The notes: generated by a model from the sequence alone, not told the origin. DNA of 64,000 nucleotides from an uncultured Alphaproteobacteria bacterium (GCA_903893805.1 CAITNM010000026.1:133664-197663); one strand, 5' to 3'; positions 40,336 through 53,151 are shown, counted from the first letter of the stretch. Made by a program: numbers and translations.

Positions 40336-40998
40336 CTAGAACTTGTAGCTCACGCCCAAAGAAATTACGGGATAGTACTTTATTAATTTGTTTTTATTGA
40401 TTTTCTTTACGGCGTCGTTTTTTACGTCTTCAATAGCTTGTGCTTTGTTTGCAGCTGTACCAGATATGCTATTGATTTTTCCTCGTGCGCTGCCTTGGAA
40501 TAAAACGCCTAAGTCAGCATTGAAGCTAAGACCAGAATTGCACTCATGTCCGCTATCAAAACCAAGCCCTAAGTATGGAGCTATTGGACGAAATTTAATC
40601 GTTCCTTTAGCTTCACCAATTTGTTGAGCAGTATAGGTTGTTCCGTTATAAGTATGACTACCATTTGCTGTACCGGTAATATCTAATTTATTTCCGTTGT
40701 ATACTAACCCACCTGTTAAGCGAAATCCATTTTGTAAAAAGTGCCAGTCACCAAGAAGACCTACAGTGAAAAGACGTAATTTTCCTTTGTAATTAACATT
40801 ATCGTTTTTTACTGATTTGTTAAATTTAAAGTAATTTGCAACGCCACGAACTTTGAAAGAGTTATTAATTTTGTATCCAACATTTGCTCCAATACCAAGC
40901 GTGCTTACGCCTAGTCCAGCAGAAAATGAAGAAGGAGCAGCAGCTTGTGCTGAAGCTAGTAAGCTGCTGATAACAGCAGTAAAGATTATTTTTTTCAT
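40336..40998 (-). CDS. Outer membrane beta-barrel protein (OmpW/OMP_b-brl-like)
   Basis: Signal peptide MKKIIFTAVISSLLASAQA, alternating beta-strand pattern, C-terminal ...GVSYKF. The start is moved to ATG 40998. Confidence 0.75.
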   Translation of the reverse strand: MKKIIFTAVISSLLASAQAAAPSSFSAGLGVSTLGIGANVGYKINNSFKVRGVANYFKFNKSVKNDNVNYKGKLRLFTVGLLGDWHFLQNGFRLTGGLVYNGNKLDITGTANGSHTYNGTTYTAQQIGEAKGTIKFRPIAPYLGLGFDSGHECNSGLSFNADLGVLFQGSARGKINSISGTAANKAQAIEDVKNDAVKKINKNKLIKYYPVISLGVSYKF

Positions 40999-41145
40999 GA
41001 ATATCTCATAGGGTTTATAATGACCAACATGTAGCATAACTATGCTCACATTGGTTTGTAATAAGCTAATATTAAGCAGCTTTCTTTTTTAGTGTGATAA
41101 GAATTCAACAATATTGAACGCTGATTATTCCATTGTGTATTAACT

Positions 41146-41193: not shown

Positions 41194-41631
41194 TTATTCT
41201 GCTTCAGGAGCTTTCGCTTCAACTGGAGCAGCGGTCGCAACAGGTGCAGCTGCAACCTTTGGTTCAGCGCGGTATGCACGTTCTGCGATACGCGCGCTTT
41301 TGCCGCGACGATCACGCAAATAGTACAACTTAGCGCGACGAACATCACCACGGCGAGTAACTTCAATTTTAATATTTGGTGAATAAAGTGAGAAAACGCG
41401 CTCAACACCTTCACCATAAGAAATCTTACGAACTCTAAAAGTAGATTTCACACCGCTGTTTTTGCGGCCAATAACCACACCTTCAAAAGGCTGGTGACGC
41501 TGACGCTCACCTTCAATAACTTTTACTAGCACGCGCAAAGAGTCGCCTGTACGAAAGTCAGGAATTACTTTGTCAATCGATAGTCTTTCTAACTGAGCTT
41601 TTTCAACTTGTTGAATAATATTCATGAACAC
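41194..41631 (-). CDS. rplS: 50S ribosomal protein L19 (with Ala/Pro-rich C-terminal tail)
   Basis: [27 protein letters not shown], with trmD upstream. Confidence 0.95.
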
Positions 41632-41637
41632 TTCCTT

Positions 41638-42360
41638 TTATTTTTTAACCGGCTTTTGATTGGCTTCATATCGTTGCCAGAGATCAGGTCGACGGTTTTG
41701 TGTTATTGTTTCTGCTTCATTTAAGCGCCATGCGGCAATAGACTTATGGTCGCCAGAAAGCAGCACATCTGGCACGACCGTTTTATTCCAAATTTGGGGT
41801 TTAGTATACTGCGGGTATTCTAGTAAGTCCAGTTCAAAACTTTCAATAGTTGTAGCGTCTGGTTTTTCTAAAACGCCGGGTAGAAGTCGAACACAAGCAT
41901 CTAATATAACAAGCGCTGCAAGTTCTCCGCCAGATAATACGTAGTCACCTATACTGATATCCTCAAGACCATGAGTTTCATGCCATTGATCAAGCACGCG
42001 TTGATCAACGCCTTCATAACGTCCGCACAATATACCAATTCCGTTTGGGTAATCAGCTAACCAGGAACGAATCATGGACTGTGTAAGTGGCTTACCCTTA
42101 GGGGATGCATAAATAAGCTTTGTGCCGGGCTGTGCGTGCGCAGAAAGTGCCGAATGAATTACATCAGGGCGCATTACCATGCCTGTGCCGCCTCCATAAC
42201 TAGTATCATCTACGGTCTTATGTTTATCCATTGCAAAGTCACGAATATTGACTGCGTTCAACTTCCAAATTCCTTGTTCCATAGCTTTGCCGGCAATAGA
42301 CTGCCCTAATGGTCCAGGAAACATATTTGGGAAAAGTGTGTAAATCGTTGCTTGCCACAT
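41638..42360 (-). CDS. trmD: tRNA (guanine37-N1)-methyltransferase
   Basis: ATIYTLFPNMFPGPL, GRYEGVDQRV, SIGDYVLSGGE. The start is set at ATG 42360 (MWQATIY). The 24 upstream codons of the track ORF are a relic of the A2M gene tail; see findings. Confidence 0.9.
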   Translation of the reverse strand: MWQATIYTLFPNMFPGPLGQSIAGKAMEQGIWKLNAVNIRDFAMDKHKTVDDTSYGGGTGMVMRPDVIHSALSAHAQPGTKLIYASPKGKPLTQSMIRSWLADYPNGIGILCGRYEGVDQRVLDQWHETHGLEDISIGDYVLSGGELAALVILDACVRLLPGVLEKPDATTIESFELDLLEYPQYTKPQIWNKTVVPDVLLSGDHKSIAAWRLNEAETITQNRRPDLWQRYEANQKPVKK

Positions 42361-42453
42361 TTGGGGGTCAGACTTTTCTTTAACGGTATTTGTTAAAAGC
42401 GCATAAGTTGCGCGCAGGTTGATATTTACCATATTTTCTACACAAACACCAGG
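42311..42453 (+). repeat. Left copy of ~140-bp direct repeat (A2M 3' end / trmD 5' end junction)
   Basis: Aligns with 46667-46806. Perfect blocks are ggtccaggaaacatatttg, gtcagacttttctttaac and atttaccatattttc. Confidence 0.85.
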
Positions 42454-42502
42454 TTATAGAAATAACGCCATTTAGTATTAGCTAAAAACGAAAAAACTAT
42501 TC

Positions 42503-42526
42503 AGGGATTTTCCCTTAGGGCATTTT
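42503..42526 (+). promoter_or_regulatory. 24-nt motif agggattttcccttagggcatttt, copy 1
   Basis: Identical at 22 of 24 positions to 46042-46065. It contains AGGG-N5-CCCT and CCCT-T-AGGG dyads and ends 77 nt upstream of ATG 42604. Confidence 0.4.
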
Positions 42527-42603
42527 CATCGCTACTTTTTATTTTTTAAACCTTTTAAATAAACACTGTGCAAAAGCATTAAATTTAAAAAGGAAAATAT
42601 ATT

Positions 42604-42987
42604 ATGAAAAAGGCTAAATTAGTAACAATAGCTATGCTACTCACATGTGTTAAAGGGTATGGTTTATCTAGTGAAGATCAATACCAGGCATTAAAAAGAG
42701 GCGCTTATCAGGTAATTGAAAATCACAAAAATGAAATCCTTGACTGTGATCAATCCAAGCGGTTTACCATAACACCTCTTAAGAGTAATTGTGAAGATTC
42801 AGAGAAAGGATTTGTTGGAATTTTGAGCGTTGATCTTATTAAATGTAACGAGGAAAACATCTTCAAGATGGTTGTTAAATTGAAAAATCTAGAAATATAT
42901 TCGGCTACTATCGATAGTGACATCTTAAAAAATTTAAAAAATTATGAGTCAATAAAATTTCAATCTTTAATACAAAATAATAAATAG
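42604..42987 (+). CDS. Small hypothetical secreted/lipoprotein-like protein
   Basis: 127 aa, signal peptide MKKAKLVTIAMLLTC, several Cys residues, AAGGA RBS. No family recognised. Confidence 0.5.
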   Translation: MKKAKLVTIAMLLTCVKGYGLSSEDQYQALKRGAYQVIENHKNEILDCDQSKRFTITPLKSNCEDSEKGFVGILSVDLIKCNEENIFKMVVKLKNLEIYSATIDSDILKNLKNYESIKFQSLIQNNK

Positions 42988-43062
42988 ATCCCAAAAATAA
43001 AAACTAATAAAAAAATCAGATTGCTTAATTATCTTCTTTAGGTGTGTGGGACAGTTTGGTTA

Positions 43063-43138
43063 GGTATTAGTTTTTATTTTAGGCCTGACACTTTAATTGT
43101 GAAGGTTGGGTGTCAGACCTAAAATAAAAACCAATACC
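43063..43138. repeat. Imperfect inverted repeat (29-nt arms, 18-nt loop)
   Basis: ggtattagtttttattttaggcctgacac and gtgtcagacctaaaataaaaaccaatacc are complementary at 27 of 29 positions. Confidence 0.85.
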
Positions 43139-43146
43139 TTGAGACT

Positions 43147-46038
43147 ATGGGGTGTTCATCTTCTCTTGCTACGAATGGCTTAATTGTGCTTCTATGTGGG
43201 GCGCATTTTGTAAGAAATCTACATCCTAAAAGTAAATTGGTAGTTATGTCTTTAAGTTTGTTAACTGCACGAGAACTAGATGTTGTTTCCTGTCTTTTAA
43301 ATGGGCGTGGTGTAAAAAAAACAGCATCTTTATTAAAGATTTCCCCTAAAACTGTGGAAACGCATATTAGAAATCTTATGCTTAAGACGAACTGTACTTC
43401 ACGAGAGCATTTAATAGACAAAATTATTGAAGCTGATATGTTGCAATCAGTGCAGCAACATTATTCAAAAATTCTTGGAAAAGATTTTCTCCCGAGCGTT
43501 CAGCCCAATGAATTAATACATCAAAATTTTTCAAAAAAACCTTTTATGAATTTTTTATGGCTTGCTGCTTTTATTAGTATTTTAGTCTGCGTCTTCTCAA
43601 TAAAATTTTTCTTTTTTCATGAAAAACCAACCATTAAAGATGATCTGCTTTTACCTAATAAACTGGTTTTCTTAGAACGTCAAAATTTGCTGAAAGAAAT
43701 TAAATATCAGTTTTCAAAAAGTCATGATGATATTAAAATAGTTGCGCTAAAAGGTGTCGCAGGTGCCGGAAAAACGATTATAGCTCGTAGTTATGCAAAG
43801 CAATATCACGAAGGATTAATTTGGGAAATTTGCGCAAGTAGCAAAGAAAGTATTCTTATTTCTTTTGAAAAGCTTCTGATTGCTATACTTCACCAAGAAA
43901 AGGATGAGTCAGGTCATTAAATCCTGCAAAAAGTTCGTAACACTCCACAATATGAATCAACCTTATTATTGATGCTTAGAGAGAAATTATCACGTAATCC
44001 TGATTGGCTTTTAATATTTGATAACGTTACTGACTTTAAAAATATTCAAGATTATTTACCTCATGATTCAGGTATTTGGGGAAGAGGTGAAATTATTTTA
44101 ACAACTTGTGATTCGGCGATTAATATGGCTGGAGCTGTGATAGAAGTTTCTGAGCTTAATCATAAAGAAAAAATACAGTTGTTTAGCAAAATCCTATCTC
44201 TTCAAGAAAATGTGTCAAAAGAAGAGCAGCATTTTCTAGATAGTTTGCCGCCATATCCCTTAGACATTTCCACAGCTGCGCATTACTTAAAAACAGTTTC
44301 AATTTCTTACCAAGAATACTTAAGCAGGATGAAGGAAAATAGTCAGCAATTTAGCGAGGCTCAAACTGATATTTTAAAAGACGTTGGGAATTATACGAAG
44401 ACTCGTTTCAATATTATTGGTTTGTCCATAAAAAACTTGCTAACAGAACACCAAGATTTTTCTGATTTATTGCTTCTGCTCAGTGTGGTTGATGCAAAAA
44501 ATATTCCACGAGAAATTCTAGATTTTTATAAAAATCCTGTCACAGTTGATAAATTTTTGCATGCTTTACAAAAGCATTCTTTGCTCAGCTGTTGTGGAAA
44601 AATTATTAGTTTGCACAGCGCTACGCAAACAGTTGTACGTTCTTATCTGTCGCAAATGTTAGGAATCAACAAGCAACAAAATAAAATAGAAAACATAACC
44701 GAAGTCTTGGAAAAATATGCTGACAAGCATCTTGTCGAACAAGATTTGCAGTCGTTGCAACAGTTGTTGCCGCATCTTTTGGCTTTAGTGAAGCACGATA
44801 ATATTTTAAGCAAGATTGCCCTTGCAAACCTCAATGTAAAAATTGCAAATATTGATATCATCAAGCAAGTAAATCAGAGCCAATCAAAAACTTTATTAGA
44901 AAATAGTTTGGTTGTTTACAAAGAGTATTATTCCAAGGCTCACCCAAAAGTAGCTTGGGTTCTAGGGCAGCTAGGTGTATTAAGTAAGTCTGATGTTGAA
45001 AAGCAACGTAAGTTTTTTGAAGAAAGCTTAGATAAGTATCAAAAATACTACCACAAAGAAAATCCTATACAGTGTGCCTGGATTTTAGTGCATTTAGGAA
45101 ATTTTTATAGACGATTAGGTGATTATCATAAAGCTGAACATTATTTGCAAAAAAGCTTAGAAATTTATCAAGAACACTATGGTTCAGAGCATCCCAAAAC
45201 TGCTTGGGTTTTTGCGAATATGGGACGTTTTTACCGGCGCATTGGTGATTACAAGAAAGCAAAAATTTTGCTTGAGAAAAGTTTGGATATCCATAGTAAA
45301 TACCCTGGGAAAAATGAAATTGAAGTAGCTTGGGTTAATTTGAACCTTGGTATTTTGTATTATTACTTATGGGACTTAAATCAATCAAAACAGTTAATTG
45401 ACAAAGGGGTCGAAGTTTACAAAAAGTACTACACACCTCAGAATCGTGAAATGGGATGGGCGTTGATATACAAAGCTTTAACAAGTGCCAGTATCACAGG
45501 TGATTGGCTTACTGCTGAAGCTGTCGTTAAAGAGTACGCAGATATTTTTATTGAAAATGGTGAAAAAGATCATATATCTGTATCGTGGGCATTAGAAAGA
45601 TTAGTGCGAGTTTATATAAATTTGCACGAATATTCGAAAGCGCTCAGCATTTTAGATAAGATGCTAGAATCTTACACAAAATTAGCTGGTGAAAATTCTG
45701 TACAAGTGGGGTTTTGCAAAAACTATATAGGGCGAATCAACTCACTAATGGGTAATTACAAAATCGCTGAATATTTCCTAAAAGATGCTTTTGCAATTTT
45801 GAATAAGAATCGGCATCCAAGAAATTATATCGTTATTAAAAGTCTTATAAACAACTATAAGTATCAAGGGAATTTCAACTCTTTTATTTTGAAAAGCTAT
45901 GAATCAATGTTTGAAAAGACGGTTCGTCAATATTTTCCTAGAGATTCTGGAATGATGACAATACTTAACCTATTTGATGTAAAGTGCATCACCAATAGGG
46001 CTTCCATTTTCCCTTCCTTTAACTTTTTTGATGCTTAG
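43147..46038 (+). pseudogene. LuxR-HTH / hydrophobic segment / NB-ARC / TPR STAND-type protein, interrupted by one in-frame TAA (43918-43920)
   Basis: ORFs 43147-43920 and 43969-46038 are in the same frame. Motifs: GerE-type HTH LTARELDVVSCLL...ISPKTVETHIRNLMLK, hydrophobic FMNFLWLAAFISILVCVFSIKFFFF, Walker A GVAGAGKT (43753-43776), Walker B WLLIFDNV, GEIILTTCD, PPYPLDIS, then KLC-like TPRs. The likely true start is ATG 43246. Confidence 0.75.
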
Positions 46039-46041
46039 CTA

Positions 46042-46065
46042 AGGGATTTTTCCTTAGTGCATTTT
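46042..46065 (+). promoter_or_regulatory. 24-nt motif agggatttttccttagtgcatttt, copy 2
   Basis: Matches 42503-42526 at 22 of 24 positions. It starts 4 nt after the STAND-gene stop and ends 80 nt upstream of ATG 46146. Confidence 0.4.
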
Positions 46066-46145
46066 GAAGGATAGAATTTTTTCTTATAACTTCTATTTTA
46101 GTAGCGATCAAAGGACTTTTTAGTTCGCTAGTAATTGGAGGACCA

Positions 46146-46442
46146 ATGAGAGAAACAGAATTTCTTGTCAAAAATCTAGAAAGAAATATTTCTCTAGAAA
46201 GAAATGCAATTTCAGAGTTTCTTAAAGTAAATATATATGCTTCAAAATTTCCTGCTTCAATTGAGATTGAAGTGTCTGATTGTGATTTAAAAAGAATTGG
46301 TAAATCCGTCAAAAAATCTCTCAACTATTTTGATGAAACCTTTTCAGAAAAAGAGACTGAAATCATAGGTTATTACAAAGCTCCTGCTTCTCAATGCTTT
46401 TTGAAAAATAAGTATTGTCAGAAAAGGGTTACAATATGCTGA
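46146..46442 (+). CDS. Hypothetical protein (98 aa)
   Basis: Strong GGAGG RBS 5 nt before the ATG, which favours this strand over the antisense ORF 46019-46324. No family recognised. Confidence 0.45.
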   Translation: MRETEFLVKNLERNISLERNAISEFLKVNIYASKFPASIEIEVSDCDLKRIGKSVKKSLNYFDETFSEKETEIIGYYKAPASQCFLKNKYCQKRVTIC

Positions 46443-46594
46443 AAAAATATATATATCTAATCGCGGTGGTCAGTAATTTTCTTTTATTGAATTTATCTAT
46501 TTTATCTTTTTCTAGTATAAAGTTTGATGATTTTGCAAAAACTATTCTAAAAGTAATAGTCAGAGAAAAATTGGCAAAGAAAAAGAAATTCTAA
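46436..46594 (+). CDS. Possible 52-aa membrane peptide
   Basis: My own translation: MLKKYIYLIAVVSNFLLLNLSILSFSSIKFDDFAKTILKVIVREKLAKKKKF. Its ATG overlaps the stop of the 98-aa ORF (ATGCTGA). One hydrophobic helix plus a basic tail. Confidence 0.25.
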   Translation: MLKKYIYLIAVVSNFLLLNLSILSFSSIKFDDFAKTILKVIVREKLAKKKKF

Positions 46595-46666
46595 ATAAAA
46601 AGCACTCTACCAAGCAAACTACGGCGGCACCAAAATAACCTATGGTTCCTGTTAAGCCTGCGTAAC

Positions 46667-46806
46667 GGTCCAGGAAACATATTTGAAAAAAGTGCGTATC
46701 GTTGCTAGCTATATTTAGCTGTCAGACTTTTCTTTAACTGTAATGGTTAATGGAGTATACATTGCATATTGTGCAGGATTTACCATATTTTCCACATAAA
46801 GACCAG
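46667..46806 (+). repeat. Right copy of ~140-bp direct repeat (intact A2M 3' end + decayed trmD 5' fragment)
   Basis: Aligns with 42311-42453. The trmD relic reads ATA TAG CTA GCA ACG ATA..., against ATG TGG CAA GCA ACG ATT in the live gene. Confidence 0.85.
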
Positions 46807-49800
46807 GCTGCTGGAATTTTCCAGTGTGAGTAGCAATAACTTCATAAGCCATTTTAAACGCACCTGCATTAGTAGGCTGACGCCATGAAGCAACGTATCG
46901 ATCATGGCGTTTTTGCACTGTGGAACCATCTTTGACATCTTTCAGCCATTCATAATTTGATATAGTATTTGAATGAGTAAATCCAGCTGGAAGCCAGTCT
47001 GAAATTAGCCAGTATCCTTCAACAGCGACATTCTCAACTGTACCTTCAAGCACTACAATTACTCGTTCACCAAGGATAATATTTTCGTTGTTTATTTTTG
47101 TGCCATCAGGCTTGTAAAAAGTACGAATTATCTTTATACCGTTTTCTTTTTTATCACCGGGCTCTGATGGAATACCATATGCATTTACGAATAGCCAAAC
47201 TGAATCATCACCAATGTTTTCAATTGTAACATCTTGCAAAGGATTCAGAGTGTGCGAGACGAAATTTTTTTCATTGTATGATTTTTGATTAATTTTGACT
47301 TTTATATTTTTTGTTGTAGTAAGGGCGCTATCAACATTTGCTTTTAAAAGCATTGCTAAAGTTTGGGTGTTGAGACGAGTAATATCTTGGTCTATTCCTT
47401 TGTTCAGCACTTCTTCAAGAGTTTCAACCAGTTGATTGATCGTTTTAATAGTTCTAAATGATGACAAATGAGAAGCAATTGCGGCCGCTTCATCAAGAGA
47501 AATACCTTTTTCAATTATAGTTTGTAACTGCTGAATACCTTTTTGAACGCGAGTTAAATCTTGAATGCTGGCAACTGTTGCTATAAACATGCTCTTTGCA
47601 ATTGCTGTTTCGCACTTATCAAAATATTCGTCAAAGCAATACCTAATTGTGGCGGTGTCTATTTCTTGTGATATGGCGCATAGCTTTACAAGCCAAGCAA
47701 TATTGTCGGCTTTCTCTCTGCCTTGTTTGATTTTCCAGTCGATAGAATTTATTTGTCGTTTTGCAAAATCTAGTGCGTTTTTAACTATTGCTTTTGGAAC
47801 AGTTAAACTAGTATTTTGAGCATACGTAAGCATTTCTAGTGCGTAAGCCGTGATGTTGAAATCATCATTATCTCGTATCCAAAAGCCCCAACCACCAGTT
47901 GAATTTTGTCGTTCATTTAGTGTTTCTATAGCCTCATAGCAAATGCGCATGTATTCAATGTTGTCTGGGTTTGATGTTTCATCTTTACTTTGTTTCAGTC
48001 CAAATATTGCAGCAAAACCCTTACTGATAGTTTGTTGAGTGCAACCAAAAGGATAATTCAATAGCCATCTTTTGATTTTTCCAACATTCCAAGGGCCTTG
48101 ATTTGTGAGAAATAAATCAGCTTGTGTCTGGAGAATGTGTAACCCTTTGAATTCAAGTTTGCACTCAGCTATTTCTTTTGATTTTATTTCTTGTTTTTGG
48201 CTTACTAAAATAGGCTGGTAAGCTGAACGAACTTCTATAGAAGTTGAATTTTGGTAGCTTATGCCTTCACCCTTTACTTCGACTTGAATAACACCTTCAC
48301 CAATTTGTTTTGCTTGAGCTGAAATAGACAAACGTTTTTGTTCTTTGGGTGCCAGTGTAATCGTTTGTTTTTTTGAAGTTGGTTCAAATGCTTTTTCCAA
48401 GCTGATATTAATTTGGCATTCGATAGAGTGGTCAGTTGTATTTTCTAAACGAATATTTAAATCATTTTCGTCATCCACGGTTAGAAACGAAGGAAGATTT
48501 GGATCAACAATTAAATCATCTTTTACGACAACTTTTCCACTTTGGCTTCCCATTTTTTCATTTGTTATAGCAACTGCGTATACCCGAAGTTTTCCGAAAA
48601 ATACTGGGATGTCCATAGAAATTTCGGCTTTTCCATTAGCATCAAGATGCACATCACCGTCAAAAAAGCTTAGAACTTTGTCATTTACTTTTGGCACAAA
48701 TGCCCCGCGACGAAGCATTATTCCATCTCCACCAGAGCGCATGTCCATGACATCAGCATCTACAGGATCAATGATATATCCATAGACATCGTGCATTTCA
48801 AGACCGAGTTGACGCTGGCCGAAGAAATGTTCTATTGGGTCTGGAGTTTTAAAATTAGTGAGTCCCATTACTCCTTCGTCTACAATAGCTATCATCAATC
48901 GTGCATCATGATTGCTTATATTTTCAATATGCACAGGAACCTTTAATTGAGTTTGTGGCTTTATTTTTTCTGGCAAATCAATTTTAATTTTTAGAGTATG
49001 GTCACCGGAATCAATTTGAATCCATTGTATGCCTACTGCACGTTTTGCTTGAATACCAGCAGTCTTTTTATCTAGCGCTCGCACAAGTGATACCATCACA
49101 TAAGCGCCACTTCCCCAACTTTCGTGGGTTGGCACTTTCAAAATATTCATGCCTTTTTTTAGATGAGCAGTATCTTTTAGTTGTATTGAATTTAGCCCGG
49201 CAATAATAATGGCTTCCCCATCAAAAGGAGCAAAAACTTTTAAAATTGCAGGCTCCCCAAGCTTGGTAACTTTTGTTTCTGGGGTGATATTTAATGTATC
49301 AGGTCTATCTTTTTGACAGCTGTATTGCTGACCGATTCTATACTTTGCAAGTTTTCTCCCATCTTTGTGTTTTATTTCAATTGCATAATTGGTAGCAAGT
49401 TTACCTTTGAAATTCAGAGAGGTTGGTTTATTAGCTTTTGCTGTAATGCTACCTTTTTTAAGAGGTTTGTCTTGATAGATGCGTTGGTAACTCCAAGAAC
49501 TTCCACGATCCTTATACCACTGATAGTGTGCTTCACTTTTAAAAAGTGTGTATTCAAGGTCTTCTACTGCGACCAAGCTACCATTGTTATCAACAGCAAT
49601 TATTTCTAGTTCAATATTTTTACTAGGATGATCTGCTTTTTCACGTATTCCAACAATGTATGGATGGGTTAGTAAGGTGGTCGATGTATTTGCTTGTTGA
49701 GATGATGTGGTATCAACTAACCTTGCGGTTAAATCAACACTCAAAGCTTTTGAGCAACTCAGATCACTTGGTATTTCAATTTTTAGTTCAGATTTCCCCG

Positions 49801-51301
49801 TTTGAATTGGTGCTGTTGCACTAGTTATAACACGGCTAACAAATCGTTCGTCATCAAGTCCAAAATGAAAATCTTTCCATTGTTCAAAGGGTGTATCTGT
49901 AGGGCTAATTTTTGCTTCTAATATAGCCTGCCTGTCATTAACTGCAGCTCCATAAAGGTAATGAGCATTTAAGGTGCACACTTGTTCAGAGCCCAGTTTT
50001 GAAACTTTTTCAAGTGTAGCTAAGGTCATTTCCATTTTGTTAGGGCTAAAATCATCAACCCTGAAATTAGTGGTGCCTACAGAACTTTGAGTTGGATCAA
50101 CATAAACCTCTACAGACCACATACCAATTGGGCAATCAGTCGGTAACATGTGCTCTGTATTGTAGGTCCCAAGTGAGTTCCCTTTCACGGTTTCCCGCTT
50201 AATTTCAATTCCTTTAGGTGACTTAATAATAAATGTAAGCGGCATAACTGGGACTTGCTTTCCATGTCCGTTACGTAATATAGAGACGATGTTGACTTTT
50301 TCATCAGGACGATAAATTCCTCGCTCACAAAAAACCATTGCATCGTAATCATTTTGTATTACGCGTCCTTTTACACCGCGATCGCTAAAATCAAAACTTG
50401 CTGCTTTTAATGATATAAAACTGAATCCTAGCTCCTCATTTTTAGCAAAGATAGCTACGGGTTTTTTCCCTGCTTTGCCGTTTAGCAGTTCTTTTGAAAA
50501 CTCAGCAAATCCATTTTCATCAGTTACTGCCGTTGCTATCACGTCATTATCTGCGCTAATTAATTCAAGCTGAATATTTTTCAATGATTTTGCATTTGAA
50601 AATGCGCGCGCATGAATCAGTAGTGTTTGATCGCTCTGAAAAGTTGTAAGGCCTATATCAGTGACGATGAACCATTGATCAGATACCTCTGCATTATAGT
50701 ATTGAAGAACGCCTTTTTGTCTTACTTCTAGTACATAAACACCTGGTTTTAATTCTGGAACAAGGGTTGTTGCTTCAAGATTTTTTGTAATAGTTTGATT
50801 CGGTTTTGCTTTCCCATCAAAATCAATAGTTGTTGAAACTATTTTTTCAGCGCTTCCAAGTTCGTAGGAACGAGTCATTAAACTGTTCATATGACCAATA
50901 ATTCCACGGTCTGGTATGCGATATAAGGTTGCTTGTGCTGTATCTATATTAATGGTTCTCACCGGGAGGCAAATTTTTTCTTGTTTTGGGTAAATATAGG
51001 TATTGTTCGGGAAATTAATTCTTGGTTTTAGGTCTTTTACAAAAAATCCTATTTCTGAAGCAGTATCAGTTTTTTCATCTAAAATACCGGTTATACCTGC
51101 TCTTGTTTTAACGCTATATTCTATGCCAGCTTGAAACCCTGAAATAGATATTTTGGAACCCTCAGCATGGACAAAACCGTCAACCTTAGGAGAAATTTCT
51201 ATGTAATTTTCTGGTTGTTCTAAATTCAAGGGTTGCGAAAAATTAAGGCGTAAAATTGCACCTTCTGGAGTTTCTTCAACTTCATGATTTATGTATTCAA
51301 A
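46715..51301 (-). CDS. Alpha-2-macroglobulin family protein (body; frame open upstream to an in-frame TAA)
   Basis: Size and collinearity with bacterial A2M/YfhM. It has an MG1-like start EGAILRLNFSQPL, the thioester-region motif YPFGCTQQT (48032-48046) and a C-terminal receptor-like domain. There is no ATG; the track start is TTG 51229, and the frame stays open to 51301. Confidence 0.85.
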   Translation of the reverse strand, partial: FEYINHEVEETPEGAILRLNFSQPLNLEQPENYIEISPKVDGFVHAEGSKISISGFQAGIEYSVKTRAGITGILDEKTDTASEIGFFVKDLKPRINFPNNTYIYPKQEKICLPVRTINIDTAQATLYRIPDRGIIGHMNSLMTRSYELGSAEKIVSTTIDFDGKAKPNQTITKNLEATTLVPELKPGVYVLEVRQKGVLQYYNAEVSDQWFIVTDIGLTTFQSDQTLLIHARAFSNAKSLKNIQLELISADNDVIATAVTDENGFAEFSKELLNGKAGKKPVAIFAKNEELGFSFISLKAASFDFSDRGVKGRVIQNDYDAMVFCERGIYRPDEKVNIVSILRNGHGKQVPVMPLTFIIKSPKGIEIKRETVKGNSLGTYNTEHMLPTDCPIGMWSVEVYVDPTQSSVGTTNFRVDDFSPNKMEMTLATLEKVSKLGSEQVCTLNAHYLYGAAVNDRQAILEAKISPTDTPFEQWKDFHFGLDDERFVSRVITSATAPIQTGKSELKIEIPSDLSCSKALSVDLTARLVDTTSSQQANTSTTLLTHPYIVGIREKADHPSKNIELEIIAVDNNGSLVAVEDLEYTLFKSEAHYQWYKDRGSSWSYQRIYQDKPLKKGSITAKANKPTSLNFKGKLATNYAIEIKHKDGRKLAKYRIGQQYSCQKDRPDTLNITPETKVTKLGEPAILKVFAPFDGEAIIIAGLNSIQLKDTAHLKKGMNILKVPTHESWGSGAYVMVSLVRALDKKTAGIQAKRAVGIQWIQIDSGDHTLKIKIDLPEKIKPQTQLKVPVHIENISNHDARLMIAIVDEGVMGLTNFKTPDPIEHFFGQRQLGLEMHDVYGYIIDPVDADVMDMRSGGDGIMLRRGAFVPKVNDKVLSFFDGDVHLDANGKAEISMDIPVFFGKLRVYAVAITNEKMGSQSGKVVVKDDLIVDPNLPSFLTVDDENDLNIRLENTTDHSIECQINISLEKAFEPTSKKQTITLAPKEQKRLSISAQAKQIGEGVIQVEVKGEGISYQNSTSIEVRSAYQPILVSQKQEIKSKEIAECKLEFKGLHILQTQADLFLTNQGPWNVGKIKRWLLNYPFGCTQQTISKGFAAIFGLKQSKDETSNPDNIEYMRICYEAIETLNERQNSTGGWGFWIRDNDDFNITAYALEMLTYAQNTSLTVPKAIVKNALDFAKRQINSIDWKIKQGREKADNIAWLVKLCAISQEIDTATIRYCFDEYFDKCETAIAKSMFIATVASIQDLTRVQKGIQQLQTIIEKGISLDEAAAIASHLSSFRTIKTINQLVETLEEVLNKGIDQDITRLNTQTLAMLLKANVDSALTTTKNIKVKINQKSYNEKNFVSHTLNPLQDVTIENIGDDSVWLFVNAYGIPSEPGDKKENGIKIIRTFYKPDGTKINNENIILGERVIVVLEGTVENVAVEGYWLISDWLPAGFTHSNTISNYEWLKDVKDGSTVQKRHDRYVASWRQPTNAGAFKMAYEVIATHTGKFQQPGLYVENMVNPAQYAMYTPLTITVKEKSDS

Positions 51302-51808
51302 TTATAAAATGTCTTTGAATCTTGAGTCTTCAGTTCTTAATTTTTCAATTGGGTAAAGTTTTTTTATTTCTTCTAAGCTGCACCATGAATTTTGTGTAAA
51401 ATACAGCAACAAAGCCTGTAATTTTTGAATATTTGAAATACTGTGCGTATATGCTAAATAGGCTGCATATTCGCAGAGCTGACTGTATTCATAATTTCTT
51501 TTTTTAATATTTTTTGCGCCATGATAAGCAAAAAGTGCTACATCAATTAAAGTTGCTGCGTCTTTGTGTGCAGAGGTTAAAATGACTTTTGACTTTTCTA
51601 AGCCTTTTACCCATTGTTTTTCTTTAAAAATTTCTTCTAATTCTTTTTTTGCTTTTTTGTATTCGTTTTTATCAGCAGGGGGGAATTCTTCAGAGATTTC
51701 ATCGATAAAATTTTTGACATTCTTTACGGCATGCTCGGGGAAATGAAATTCAGCTGCTAGTGGAAGGAAACAACACAATACAGTAAGTGCAAGGATACGA
51801 AAAAACAT
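51302..51808 (-). CDS. Signal-peptide-bearing helical protein, in frame with and probably the N-terminus of the A2M gene
   Basis: MFFRILALTVLCCFLPLAAEF signal. Its TAA (51302-51304) is in the same frame as the A2M body, with no gap. Confidence 0.6.
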   Translation of the reverse strand: MFFRILALTVLCCFLPLAAEFHFPEHAVKNVKNFIDEISEEFPPADKNEYKKAKKELEEIFKEKQWVKGLEKSKVILTSAHKDAATLIDVALFAYHGAKNIKKRNYEYSQLCEYAAYLAYTHSISNIQKLQALLLYFTQNSWCSLEEIKKLYPIEKLRTEDSRFKDIL

Positions 51809-51822
51809 GAGTAAGCCATGTA

Positions 51823-53151
51823 TTAATTTCTCTTGTCTAGAACCTTAGCACGATGATTCCAGGTTAGTGCAAAGAAAAAAGCACTAAGTAATGCACAAAC
51901 TGCAATAGAGGCAAATGCCGTATCCCAACCTGAGTTATCAACAATCTTTCCAATGCCGTATCCTGCTACAGCAGCGCCAAGATAGCCGACTGTTCCTGTC
52001 AGGCCAGTAGCTGCACCCGCAGCTTTTTTAGAAGCAAAATCAGCGGCTGCGACGCCAACTAAAATCTGTGGTCCTGTGACTAAAAATCCAATAAGCATCA
52101 TACCAAGAAAATGCTGCCATTTTTGGTCAACAGGCGACTGCCATAAGAATACAATGCTTATTGCTAAGACGATCATGTATAAAAATCCTACACGTCCGCG
52201 CCTTCCTTCAAATACTTTGTCTGACAAATATCCGGCGATAAGACCTCCAAACATCCCGGCAATATCAAACATCGCTGCTTGCCATCCGGCTAGTTTAAGG
52301 CTGCTACCTTTGAATTCTTGCAGAAATGTGGGCGCCCAATAGAGCACAAACATGCGTACTATGTAGACAAAAAAGTTTGCTCCGCAAACGTACCAAACAA
52401 GCTTATTTTGTGCTACTTGAAGAAAAATTTCCTTGGTAGTTAATTTGTTATCATCAATTTCATGTGCTTCAACAAGACCATGATGATTTTCTATTGGTGG
52501 CAATCCAAGTGATTCCGGGGAATCGCGCAGTCTATTTAATAGAAAAAAAGCAACACCTACGCATAAAACAGCAGGAACATAAAAAACATATCTCCATCCG
52601 AATATTTCCATAATGTAAGGTGATGCAATAAGAACTGCTGCACCACCAATTTGTTGAGATGTATTCCAAAGTGCCCACTTTGTACCAATTTCTTTAGGGC
52701 TAAACCAATGGGTTAAAAGTCGCGCACATGGTGGCCATCCCATTGATTGAAAACACTGATTAAATATGTATAGGACTGATAACATTATCCAAGTGGAGCT
52801 AAATCCCAAACAAAAGCTAACTATTGCTGAGCCTAATAACCCTGCACTCATGAAATAACGTGCATTACTACGGTCACCTAGTAACCCTGTTATGCCTTTT
52901 CCTAGCCCATACAAAATAGCACCAGCGGAAATGATAATGCCTATTTCAGCTTTTGTGTATCCAAGTTCAGACTGTAAATAAGGAATTGCCATGGTGAAGT
53001 TTGTGCGTAACAGGTAAAAGGCTGCGTACCCGATCATCATTGACAACATAATTCTGCGACGCCAGTACGAATATGTACGACCATCACCAGCAACTTTATT
53101 TAATGTACTGCCTGAAATTTCTTCTGTATGCGCAACGAAAGATTGGACCAA
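51823..53151 (-). CDS. MFS organophosphate:Pi antiporter (GlpT/UhpC family)
   Basis: Collinear with GlpT: YAAFYLLRTNF, GDRSNARYF, QSMGWPPCARLLTHWF, LGLPPIE. Confidence 0.85.
   Translation of the reverse strand: MVQSFVAHTEEISGSTLNKVAGDGRTYSYWRRRIMLSMMIGYAAFYLLRTNFTMAIPYLQSELGYTKAEIGIIISAGAILYGLGKGITGLLGDRSNARYFMSAGLLGSAIVSFCLGFSSTWIMLSVLYIFNQCFQSMGWPPCARLLTHWFSPKEIGTKWALWNTSQQIGGAAVLIASPYIMEIFGWRYVFYVPAVLCVGVAFFLLNRLRDSPESLGLPPIENHHGLVEAHEIDDNKLTTKEIFLQVAQNKLVWYVCGANFFVYIVRMFVLYWAPTFLQEFKGSSLKLAGWQAAMFDIAGMFGGLIAGYLSDKVFEGRRGRVGFLYMIVLAISIVFLWQSPVDQKWQHFLGMMLIGFLVTGPQILVGVAAADFASKKAAGAATGLTGTVGYLGAAVAGYGIGKIVDNSGWDTAFASIAVCALLSAFFFALTWNHRAKVLDKRN

Follow-up and report, generated by a model that had tools for sequence, protein, structure and literature searches.

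In e14 and in phage 21, which reside in icd, and in islands at tRNA and tmRNA genes, diverged repeats duplicate the end of a host gene, and the dead fragment of that gene is displaced. Cis-mobilizable elements (CIMEs) are small islets between direct repeats that have no recombination genes of their own, the repeats being the attachment (att) sites of the integrase of a cognate integrative and conjugative element (ICE). Here we describe a chromosomal islet of about 4.2 kb that lies directly before the essential gene trmD, between it and an alpha-2-macroglobulin gene (A2M), in a 64,000-nucleotide stretch of DNA from an uncultured Alphaproteobacteria bacterium (GCA_903893805.1 CAITNM010000026.1:133664-197663; this whole stretch is called the window, and positions are counted from its first letter). 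Like surrogate ends of the e14 and phage 21 type, the islet keeps its gene functional and has the dead fragment at its far end. Unlike them, it lacks an integrase and a conserved att core as well as any phage or conjugation genes, and it duplicates two gene ends (A2M 3′ and trmD 5′) together with a fragment of an MFS transporter gene. Like CIMEs, it is small, bounded by repeats and devoid of recombination genes, but no cognate integrase or ICE is seen for it, and its repeats are plain duplicated chromosome. With the merodiploids that arise during transformation of Streptococcus pneumoniae (Johnston et al., 2013; PMC3784515), the islet has in common a joint of a distal end to a proximal start, direct repeats of native sequence, the lack of a dedicated recombinase, an intact essential gene and a redundant copy that is open to alteration. 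The differences are that the unit involved here is about 5 kb rather than 100-900 kb, that the joint is illegitimate (at microhomology) whereas theirs lies at repeats derived from insertion sequences, and that the islet is ancient and fixed and carries foreign cargo in place of a duplicate gene.

We consider it somewhat better than an even bet that the islet was left by a single old duplicative recombination whose endpoints lie 178 nucleotides (nt) before the stop codon of the MFS gene, MFS(-178), and about 60 nt into trmD, trmD(+60). The argument depends on the two repeat copies and on three relics, designated A′ (from the A2M tail), T′ (from the trmD head) and MFS′. In window coordinates, these features and the genes from which they derive are as follows.

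41638-42360, minus strand: live trmD (Pfam tRNA_m1G_MT, E=3e-48), with its conserved start ATG at 42360.
42298-42453, minus strand: left (trmD-proximal) repeat copy, of which 42298-42362 is the live trmD head with its start and 42363-42453 is A′.
46619-46658, minus strand: MFS′ relic, 40 nt, codons GLTGTIGYFGAAV, corresponding to the segment 178-138 nt before the MFS stop.
46659-46714, minus strand: T′ relic, dead trmD nt +1 to about +60, joined to MFS′ at about 46655-46662.
46715-51808, minus strand: A2M, 1697 codons (Pfam bMG3, MG2, bMG5, bMG6, A2M_BRD, A2M and bMG10).
51823-53151, minus strand: resident MFS transporter gene (Pfam MFS_1, E=5e-57), the upstream edge of the variable locus.

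Alignment of 42298-42453 with 46655-46807 yields 123 matches, 25 mismatches and 13 gap columns over 161 columns, corresponding to an identity of 76% overall and 83% of ungapped columns. The local alignment score of 133 lies about 50 standard deviations above those of 500 shuffled sequences (17.9±2.3, maximum 27), and a blastn search with the right copy as query against the whole window returns the left copy as its sole match (E=3e-11). The diverged direct repeats reported in a preliminary description of this DNA are thus real, with a span slightly longer than the ~140 bp given there, and the three exact blocks listed in it were recovered (19 nt at 42311, 18 nt at 42367 and 15 nt at 42424). Its reading of the repeated segment as the A2M-3′/trmD-5′ junction was likewise borne out. 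The left copy combines the live trmD start, with codons 1 to about 20, and a decayed A2M tail, A′ being the relic of the last ~95 nt of that gene; the right copy combines the live A2M stop (46715-46717), with the last ~93 nt of A2M (46715-46807) as its A part, and the dead trmD head. T′ carries ATA TAG where trmD has ATG TGG, as well as a 2-nt deletion, whereas the N-terminus of live TrmD reads ATGTGGCAAGC in all relatives, islet-free ones included. The two parts of the repeat have diverged to a similar degree (86% of ungapped columns identical for T′ and 82% for A′). This difference is not significant, and the attempt to assign different ages to two events from T′ and A′ divergence was dropped for that reason.

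The third relic extends the duplicated material beyond the A2M-trmD junction. Aligned with MFS alleles, MFS′ scores 45 in the window and 53 in the related genome L081, as compared with 22.5±2.4 for shuffled sequences (maximum 29-34), and its best match is the allele of L004, with 34/40 identical positions for the window and 36/38 for L081. A search with a degenerate-codon version of the MFS motif recovers only the real MFS gene and the MFS′ relic, in the window and in L081 alike, and where the relic departs from the resident MFS gene, most of the changes are synonymous. All 8 genomes in which this end is assembled have the T′/MFS′ joint. In gene orientation, the order is A2M tail - T′(trmD +1 to about +60)/MFS′(-178 to -138) - cargo - A′(A2M -95 to stop) - trmD. 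A joint of this kind, in which a distal end is attached to a proximal start, is the novel joint of a tandem duplication or of a circle integration, and the fusion of MFS′ to T′ implies that the recombining unit spanned everything from the 3′ end of MFS to the 5′ end of trmD. The preliminary description had regarded all of 42454-46666 as insertion. This holds for the accessory genes, which are missing from near-identical genomes, but not for 46619-46658, which is MFS relic and not cargo.

A search with the TrmD protein returned Candidatus Finniella and related metagenome-assembled genomes of the Paracaedibacteraceae, at 80-96% identity, and the host is a Candidatus Finniella (Holosporales), a symbiont of protists. 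About 20 assemblies, most of them metagenome assemblies, were compared at this locus, and they present six states.

(a) MFS - A2M - trmD with nothing between, the A2M stop lying 3 nt before the trmD ATG: L010 and L011.
(b) MFS - A2M - unrelated 1.9-kb insert - trmD: L008.
(c) MFS - 57 nt - trmD: L001, L003, L004 and L090.
(d) MFS - 57 nt - T′ - cargo - A′ - trmD, without A2M: L002, L082, L083 and L170-173.
(e) MFS - A2M - T′ - cargo - A′ - trmD: the window, L081, L174, L175 and L176.
(f) MFS directly before trmD, with no recognizable A2M remnant: L006, L007, L009 and L091-L094.

A further genome, L089, has the same cargo side as state (d), and its contig ends inside the cargo. At least 12 further assemblies thus have the islet at this position; they belong to two diverged clades and have or lack A2M. 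Six Finniella-like contigs added by a metagenome scan revealed no new locus state. The former contiguity of A2M and trmD, which had been proposed from the window, is confirmed by the direct abutment of the two genes in L010 and L011 and by the abutment of A2M-tail codons on trmD in L001, L003, L004 and L090. The 57 nt of states (c) and (d) consist of the A2M start codon and about six further codons, in frame with the last ~8 A2M codons; they form a 14-codon mini open reading frame (ORF; MFLHFRTIKEKSGI*) with its junction at a TA microhomology, and the A2M-less genomes that carry this stub descend from one shared internal A2M deletion. The insert of L008 (8082-10000 of that contig) encodes a 319-amino-acid (aa), secreted-looking protein on the opposite strand and two small ORFs. 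It has no flanking duplication, and duplication is therefore no property of the site. The A2M-trmD junction is a general hotspot, and L008 is a more distant relative.

The A′ relics of five lineages have derived changes in common that set them apart from all live A2M tails (TTTATGTGG to TTTGTGTAG or TTTGTGCAG). These changes, together with the identical cassette boundaries, argue for a single origin, and the 2-nt deletion in T′ common to the window, L081 and L174-176 likewise indicates that the T′ relics of these genomes are orthologous.

Within the window, the 4.2-kb insert is a compositional outlier, as had been remarked of its AT-richness. Its G+C content (GC) is 0.320, as against 0.391±0.012 (minimum 0.363) for all other 4.2-kb windows, and its tetranucleotide distance is 0.278, as against 0.146±0.017 (maximum 0.205). 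At third codon positions, the GC of the main cargo gene (0.287) falls in the range of core genes (0.25-0.34), so that the cargo is atypical in its amino-acid make-up and not in mutational bias. A Pfam search of all cargo ORFs identified no recombinase or transposase in the islet, and precomputed Pfam annotations identified none within ~8-10 kb in seven related contexts (L081, L082, L083, L169-L176), in agreement with the preliminary description. No tRNA and no Rfam family was found in and around the islet, and the ends of the cargo have no terminal inverted repeats. The islet is therefore not a transposon by the usual marks, having neither transposase nor terminal inverted repeats and a duplication of ~155 bp, as compared with 2-14 bp. 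A conserved att core is also lacking, since the exact blocks of the window differ from the stretches that are identical between the repeats in L081, L002 and L082. The duplication of gene ends leaves A2M and trmD both intact at the junction, an outcome that plain duplication gives too. Among the relatives, the cassette was found neither at another genomic site nor as a circle.

Comparison of the main cargo gene, which encodes a regulator, divides the islet-bearing genomes into clade I (the window, L081, L005 and L174-176) and clade II (L002, L089, L082 and L170-173), whose regulators are 87-89% identical in nucleotide sequence, with a synonymous divergence (dS) of 0.3-0.5. Wherever the relevant end is assembled (the contigs of L005, L169 and L089 end earlier), clade I always has A2M and clade II always lacks it, which fits vertical descent with a single A2M deletion. 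The preliminary description had taken the divergence of the repeats as a sign of an old event. The age is upheld by the same cassette with the same boundaries in two clades and by the cargo dS of 0.3-0.5, but the repeat divergence itself cannot be read as a simple clock, given the marks of recombination in the relics and the large differences among them from one lineage to another.

Recombination is also evident in the unequal divergence of the segments of this locus. Between the window and L081, dS is 0.46-0.70 for the background (PBP, MFS and murB), 0.19 for A2M and only 0.07-0.11 for the cargo, and identity falls to ~80% over the small cargo gene orf127, A′ and the 5′-terminal 300 nt of trmD. 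MFS alleles with dS>1 (about 80% nucleotide identity) occur in genomes whose trmD-rplS segments are 93-98% identical, and the gene is a mosaic in the window, L001-L004, L081 and L082, whose neighbouring genes differ by a dS of only 0.01-0.3. The MFS gene of L004 changes allele type within its last ~180 nt.

The islet-bearing genome L002 and the islet-free genome L090 are particularly close: they differ at 4 of ~1280 nt in trmD-rplS, three of these lying in the first 72 nt of trmD, and at 25 of 4000 nt upstream. The first 39 nt of the T′ relic of L002 correspond to the resident allele of the islet-free genomes L090, L003 and L004 and are followed by cassette-type sequence, and its T′ 3′ end and MFS′ joint match the cassette of other lineages. 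These facts fit equally well with import of the cassette through one crossover in T′, with Campbell re-integration, or with loss by recombination between T′ and trmD. The islet is thus old, yet genomes that are nearly identical may have or lack it, and recombination has carried it from lineage to lineage.

From these observations we infer a route and an order of events for the duplicative recombination. In the ancestor, whose gene order would have been MFS - A2M - trmD, the stop of A2M adjoined the start of trmD. An event with the topology of a tandem duplication (Campbell type) would then have joined trmD at about +60 to MFS at about -178, the product being MFS - A2M - T′/MFS′ - X - A′ - trmD, in which X, the 3.9-kb cargo, would stand in the place of the second A2M copy. 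The unit, reaching from MFS(-178) across A2M to trmD(+60), would measure about 5.3 kb in an A2M-bearing genome, and the ~155-bp repeats would be the part of it that survives in both copies. It is because of the duplication that A2M and the essential trmD both keep an intact end. Of the Campbell-type integration of a circle carrying the junction that had been proposed earlier, the single-crossover topology stands, whereas the unit was larger than the ~140-bp junction, given the MFS relic fused to T′.

Two routes could lead to this product. A related lineage in which the cargo had already taken the place of A2M might have supplied a circularized chromosomal fragment that entered by a single RecA-type crossover in the homology of the A2M tail and trmD head; alternatively, unequal exchange between sister chromosomes might have duplicated the unit, with the redundant A2M copy being replaced afterward. 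Both tandem duplications and merodiploids arising from incoming DNA that recombines with sister chromatids have been documented experimentally (PMC3784515). We slightly favor the imported circle, because MFS′ carries the allele IGYF, which occurs as a resident MFS allele only in L004, whereas the MFS gene of every cargo-bearing genome has VGYL. Subsequently, the locus would have diverged into two clades, A2M would have been deleted in one of them to leave the 14-codon stub, and the block would have been exchanged among lineages by homologous recombination. The absence of the islet from near-identical genomes would reflect deletion by recombination between T′ and trmD, or the islet may never have been imported into them. 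The nonsense codons in A2M and the regulator gene would have been acquired later, in this genome.

Several points weigh against this reconstruction. Neither the donor arrangement (MFS - cargo - A′ - trmD, without the T′/MFS′ joint) nor two copies of A2M occur in any genome compared. Of the genes inside the unit, the second copy consists only of the relics A′ (95 nt) and MFS′ (40 nt); recognizable MFS′ sequence is confined to those 40 nt, and the original size of the unit is read from two short relics. The resident MFS gene, which is demonstrably a mosaic, could have been replaced later, and its allele would then differ from that of MFS′ for this reason. Chimeric metagenome contigs could mimic mosaicism, a concern that is countered by the same architecture recurring in many independent assemblies.

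One rival is the version of the preliminary description, a small circle that carried only ~140-150 bp of the A2M/trmD junction together with the cargo and entered through one homologous crossover; the 40 nt that resemble MFS would then be cargo of unrelated origin. Such an event would have the topology of the direct repeats, would need no recombinase and would keep both genes intact, yet it does not predict that in all genomes MFS′ should begin precisely where T′ ends, nor that it should be significantly similar to the 3′ region of the neighbouring gene, with differences that are mostly synonymous. For these reasons we regard it as unlikely. The cassette might instead be still mobile without a recombinase of its own, with recombination between T′ and the live trmD head excising a circle (A′-T′/MFS′-cargo); we consider such excision quite unlikely, and assign the same low standing to its complement, RecA-only re-entry at the conserved trmD head of any Finniella chromosome with trmD regenerated intact. 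Mobility of this kind would account for the islet in both A2M-bearing and A2M-deleted backgrounds, for the nesting of the islet-bearing L002 and L089 among islet-free genomes, for the resident-type 5′ 39 nt in T′ of L002, which are those of its islet-free near-twins, and for a cargo dS lower than that of the background. All of these patterns, however, are also produced by ordinary double-crossover allelic exchange or by deletion between T′ and trmD. The invariable association of clade I with A2M and of clade II with its absence is what vertical descent predicts, neither a circular form nor a second insertion site was found, and the repeats of the window, at only 76% identity, have diverged too far to recombine efficiently.

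A remnant of a site-specific integrative element, of the type of e14 or phage 21 in icd or of a CIME, with its integrase lost or supplied in trans, would by analogy leave diverged gene-end repeats containing exact blocks of 15-19 nt, which resemble attL and attR with surrogate ends. We judge this origin very unlikely, given that the islet and its surroundings lack a recombinase in all seven contexts, that the exact blocks have no common core (the identical stretches of L081 lie elsewhere), that a T′/MFS′ joint is unexpected for an att site and that close orthologues of the main cargo gene never occur at another site. Finally, the repeats could stem from a local target duplication of ~155 bp during illegitimate insertion, with staggered breaks filled in, or from chance or misassembly. 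The insertion does lie exactly between the two copies, but a target duplication leaves the MFS′ fragment unaccounted for, 155 bp is far above the target duplications known for transposases, and terminal inverted repeats are absent. Artefact is opposed by the recurrence of the architecture in at least 12 independent assemblies and by an alignment score ~50 standard deviations above shuffles. These possibilities are hardly credible, and the duplicative recombination from MFS to trmD is the reading that we retain.

The decayed A2M tail has a consequence for the annotation of trmD. The stop codon of A′ has been lost (TAA to CAA), placing the relic in frame with trmD (42363-42432; also in L005, L169, L174 and L175), and the trmD ORF is open upstream to an ATG at 42432, which adds 24 residues (MVNINLRATYALLTNTVKEKSDPQ) to the protein that begins at the conserved start at 42360. 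In several related assemblies, the TrmD annotated by gene callers is 264 or 258 aa long. The first ~34 nt of the A2M-tail relic are conserved across lineages. Scans of the relics for promoters and terminators found nothing above background, except a terminator-like hairpin at 42503-42515, and it is a matter of speculation that the relic has been kept because it holds the trmD promoter.

The cargo and the gene downstream of trmD comprise the following features.

41194-41631, minus strand: rplS (ribosomal protein L19; Pfam Ribosomal_L19, E=2e-43), downstream partner of trmD, 99% identical in close relatives.
42454-42603, no strand assigned: conserved cargo-end spacer from A′ to orf127, with the hairpin AGGGATTTTCCCT and a T-run; contains inner repeat copy 1.
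42604-42987, plus strand: orf127, a small, hypervariable ORF with a lipoprotein-like signal peptide (judged by eye).
43062-43139, no strand assigned: inverted repeat between orf127 and the STAND gene, with 30-nt arms that are 93% complementary and an 18-nt loop.
43246-46038, plus strand: main cargo gene, encoding a 930-aa regulator with a LuxR/GerE helix-turn-helix (HTH), NB-ARC and TPR (STAND).
46042-46090, no strand assigned: inner 49-nt direct repeat copy 2, 73% identical to 42503-42551 and ~100 nt upstream of orf98.
46146-46594, plus strand: orf98 (46146-46442) and the overlapping orf59 (46415-46594).

The regulator has the make-up of a STAND protein of the LuxR type, that is, a GerE/LuxR HTH, an NB-ARC NTPase and TPR sensor repeats. 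Pfam detects GerE (E=8e-14) and TPR_12 (E=5e-43) in the protein of the window, NB-ARC (PF00931) is annotated by precomputation on P0001 and P0002, two intact orthologues, and the Walker A and B motifs GVAGAGKT and LLIFDNV are visible in the sequence. MalT-like and AfsR-like regulators of the LuxR family likewise combine a GerE/LuxR HTH with NB-ARC and TPR_12/TPR_10, but the HTH of the cargo regulator is N-terminal and is followed by a hydrophobic segment. A role in defense was also considered. PADLOC returned only a generic TPR match (2e-8) and no defense model for the STAND protein, and assignment to the Avs-like anti-phage STAND proteins was rejected, there being no match to a curated defense model and the N-terminal domain being a DNA-binding HTH.

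In the window, an in-frame TAA (43918-43920) interrupts the regulator gene. L002 and L005 have CAA (Q) at this codon, and L081 carries an intact gene of 930 aa. A2M likewise contains an in-frame TAA (51302-51304) in this genome where L081 has AAA (K), and it matches the intact L081 gene (1697 aa) in length. The two TAA codons represent either recent pseudogenization in this genome only or sequencing errors.

Regulators of this family are multicopy and accessory in alphaproteobacterial endosymbionts, with paralogues of 30-53% identity located near peptidase, toxin-antitoxin and resolvase genes. Orthologues of at least 87% identity occur at the trmD site only, and the paralogues of 50-53% identity lack the repeats and sit in unrelated regions where toxin-antitoxin, resolvase and Fic genes abound. 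In L084 and L085, such paralogues adjoin peptidase genes (C26 and C1). The association of regulator paralogues with peptidases suggests a family of regulator-plus-effector modules in these symbionts.

None of the small cargo ORFs (orf127, orf98 and orf59) has a match in Pfam or PADLOC. The nucleotide identity of orf127 among lineages is 65-92%, with a ratio of nonsynonymous to synonymous divergence (dN/dS) of about 0.3-0.5; it is far more divergent than its neighbours, and its tree conflicts with that of the adjacent regulator gene, L081, for example, being closest to L082. The signal of orf127 includes a lipobox-like LLTC. In the second clade, orf98 and orf59 form a single 149-aa ORF. From lineage to lineage, the spacer that separates A′ from orf127 keeps an identity of 84-90%, above that of A′. 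Its segment 42503-42551 is the first copy of the inner 49-nt repeat, the second being 46042-46090. The two copies contain the hairpin AGGGATTTTCCCT(T)AGGG and a 24-nt core for which no chance matches are expected. One copy precedes the small ORF orf127 and the other orf98, each at a distance of ~100 nt, and the pair is also found in L002 and L081. On the basis of this placement, the inner repeat may be a shared operator, for the regulator, or a promoter element. Paralogy of orf127 and the orf98/149-aa ORF was considered as an origin of the inner repeat and rejected, as no similarity exists between them. For the hairpin at 43062-43139, Rfam gave only sub-threshold matches to generic miRNA models.

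On the other side of trmD-rplS, the region after rplS is a second variable spot. The window has there an ORF for a 237-aa, outer-membrane-like protein (40336-41049), whereas L082, L169, L174 and L175 have a methyltransferase gene instead; in L082 and L083 the methyltransferase gene is joined by a 62-aa ORF.

Insertions in duplicated native sequence, join points of tandem duplications and islets that lack an integrase are all known in kind. The locus is a well-preserved natural case in an under-studied group of symbionts and represents no new class of element and no new mechanism. Its value lies in being a clean and datable fossil, in which an accessory block was placed directly before an essential gene without damage and in which three nested relics (the A2M tail, the trmD head and the MFS fragment) still display the topology of the recombination. 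It also bears on annotation, as the in-frame A2M-tail relic has been called as a 24-residue N-terminal extension of TrmD in several public assemblies. For Candidatus Finniella, the interval between MFS and trmD emerges as a recombination hotspot, occupied by A2M, by A2M and the islet, by the islet alone, by a 14-codon A2M stub or by an unrelated 1.9-kb insert. The exchange of blocks between lineages whose genomes differ by a dS of 0.5-1 speaks against genetic isolation of these protist endosymbionts of the Holosporales.

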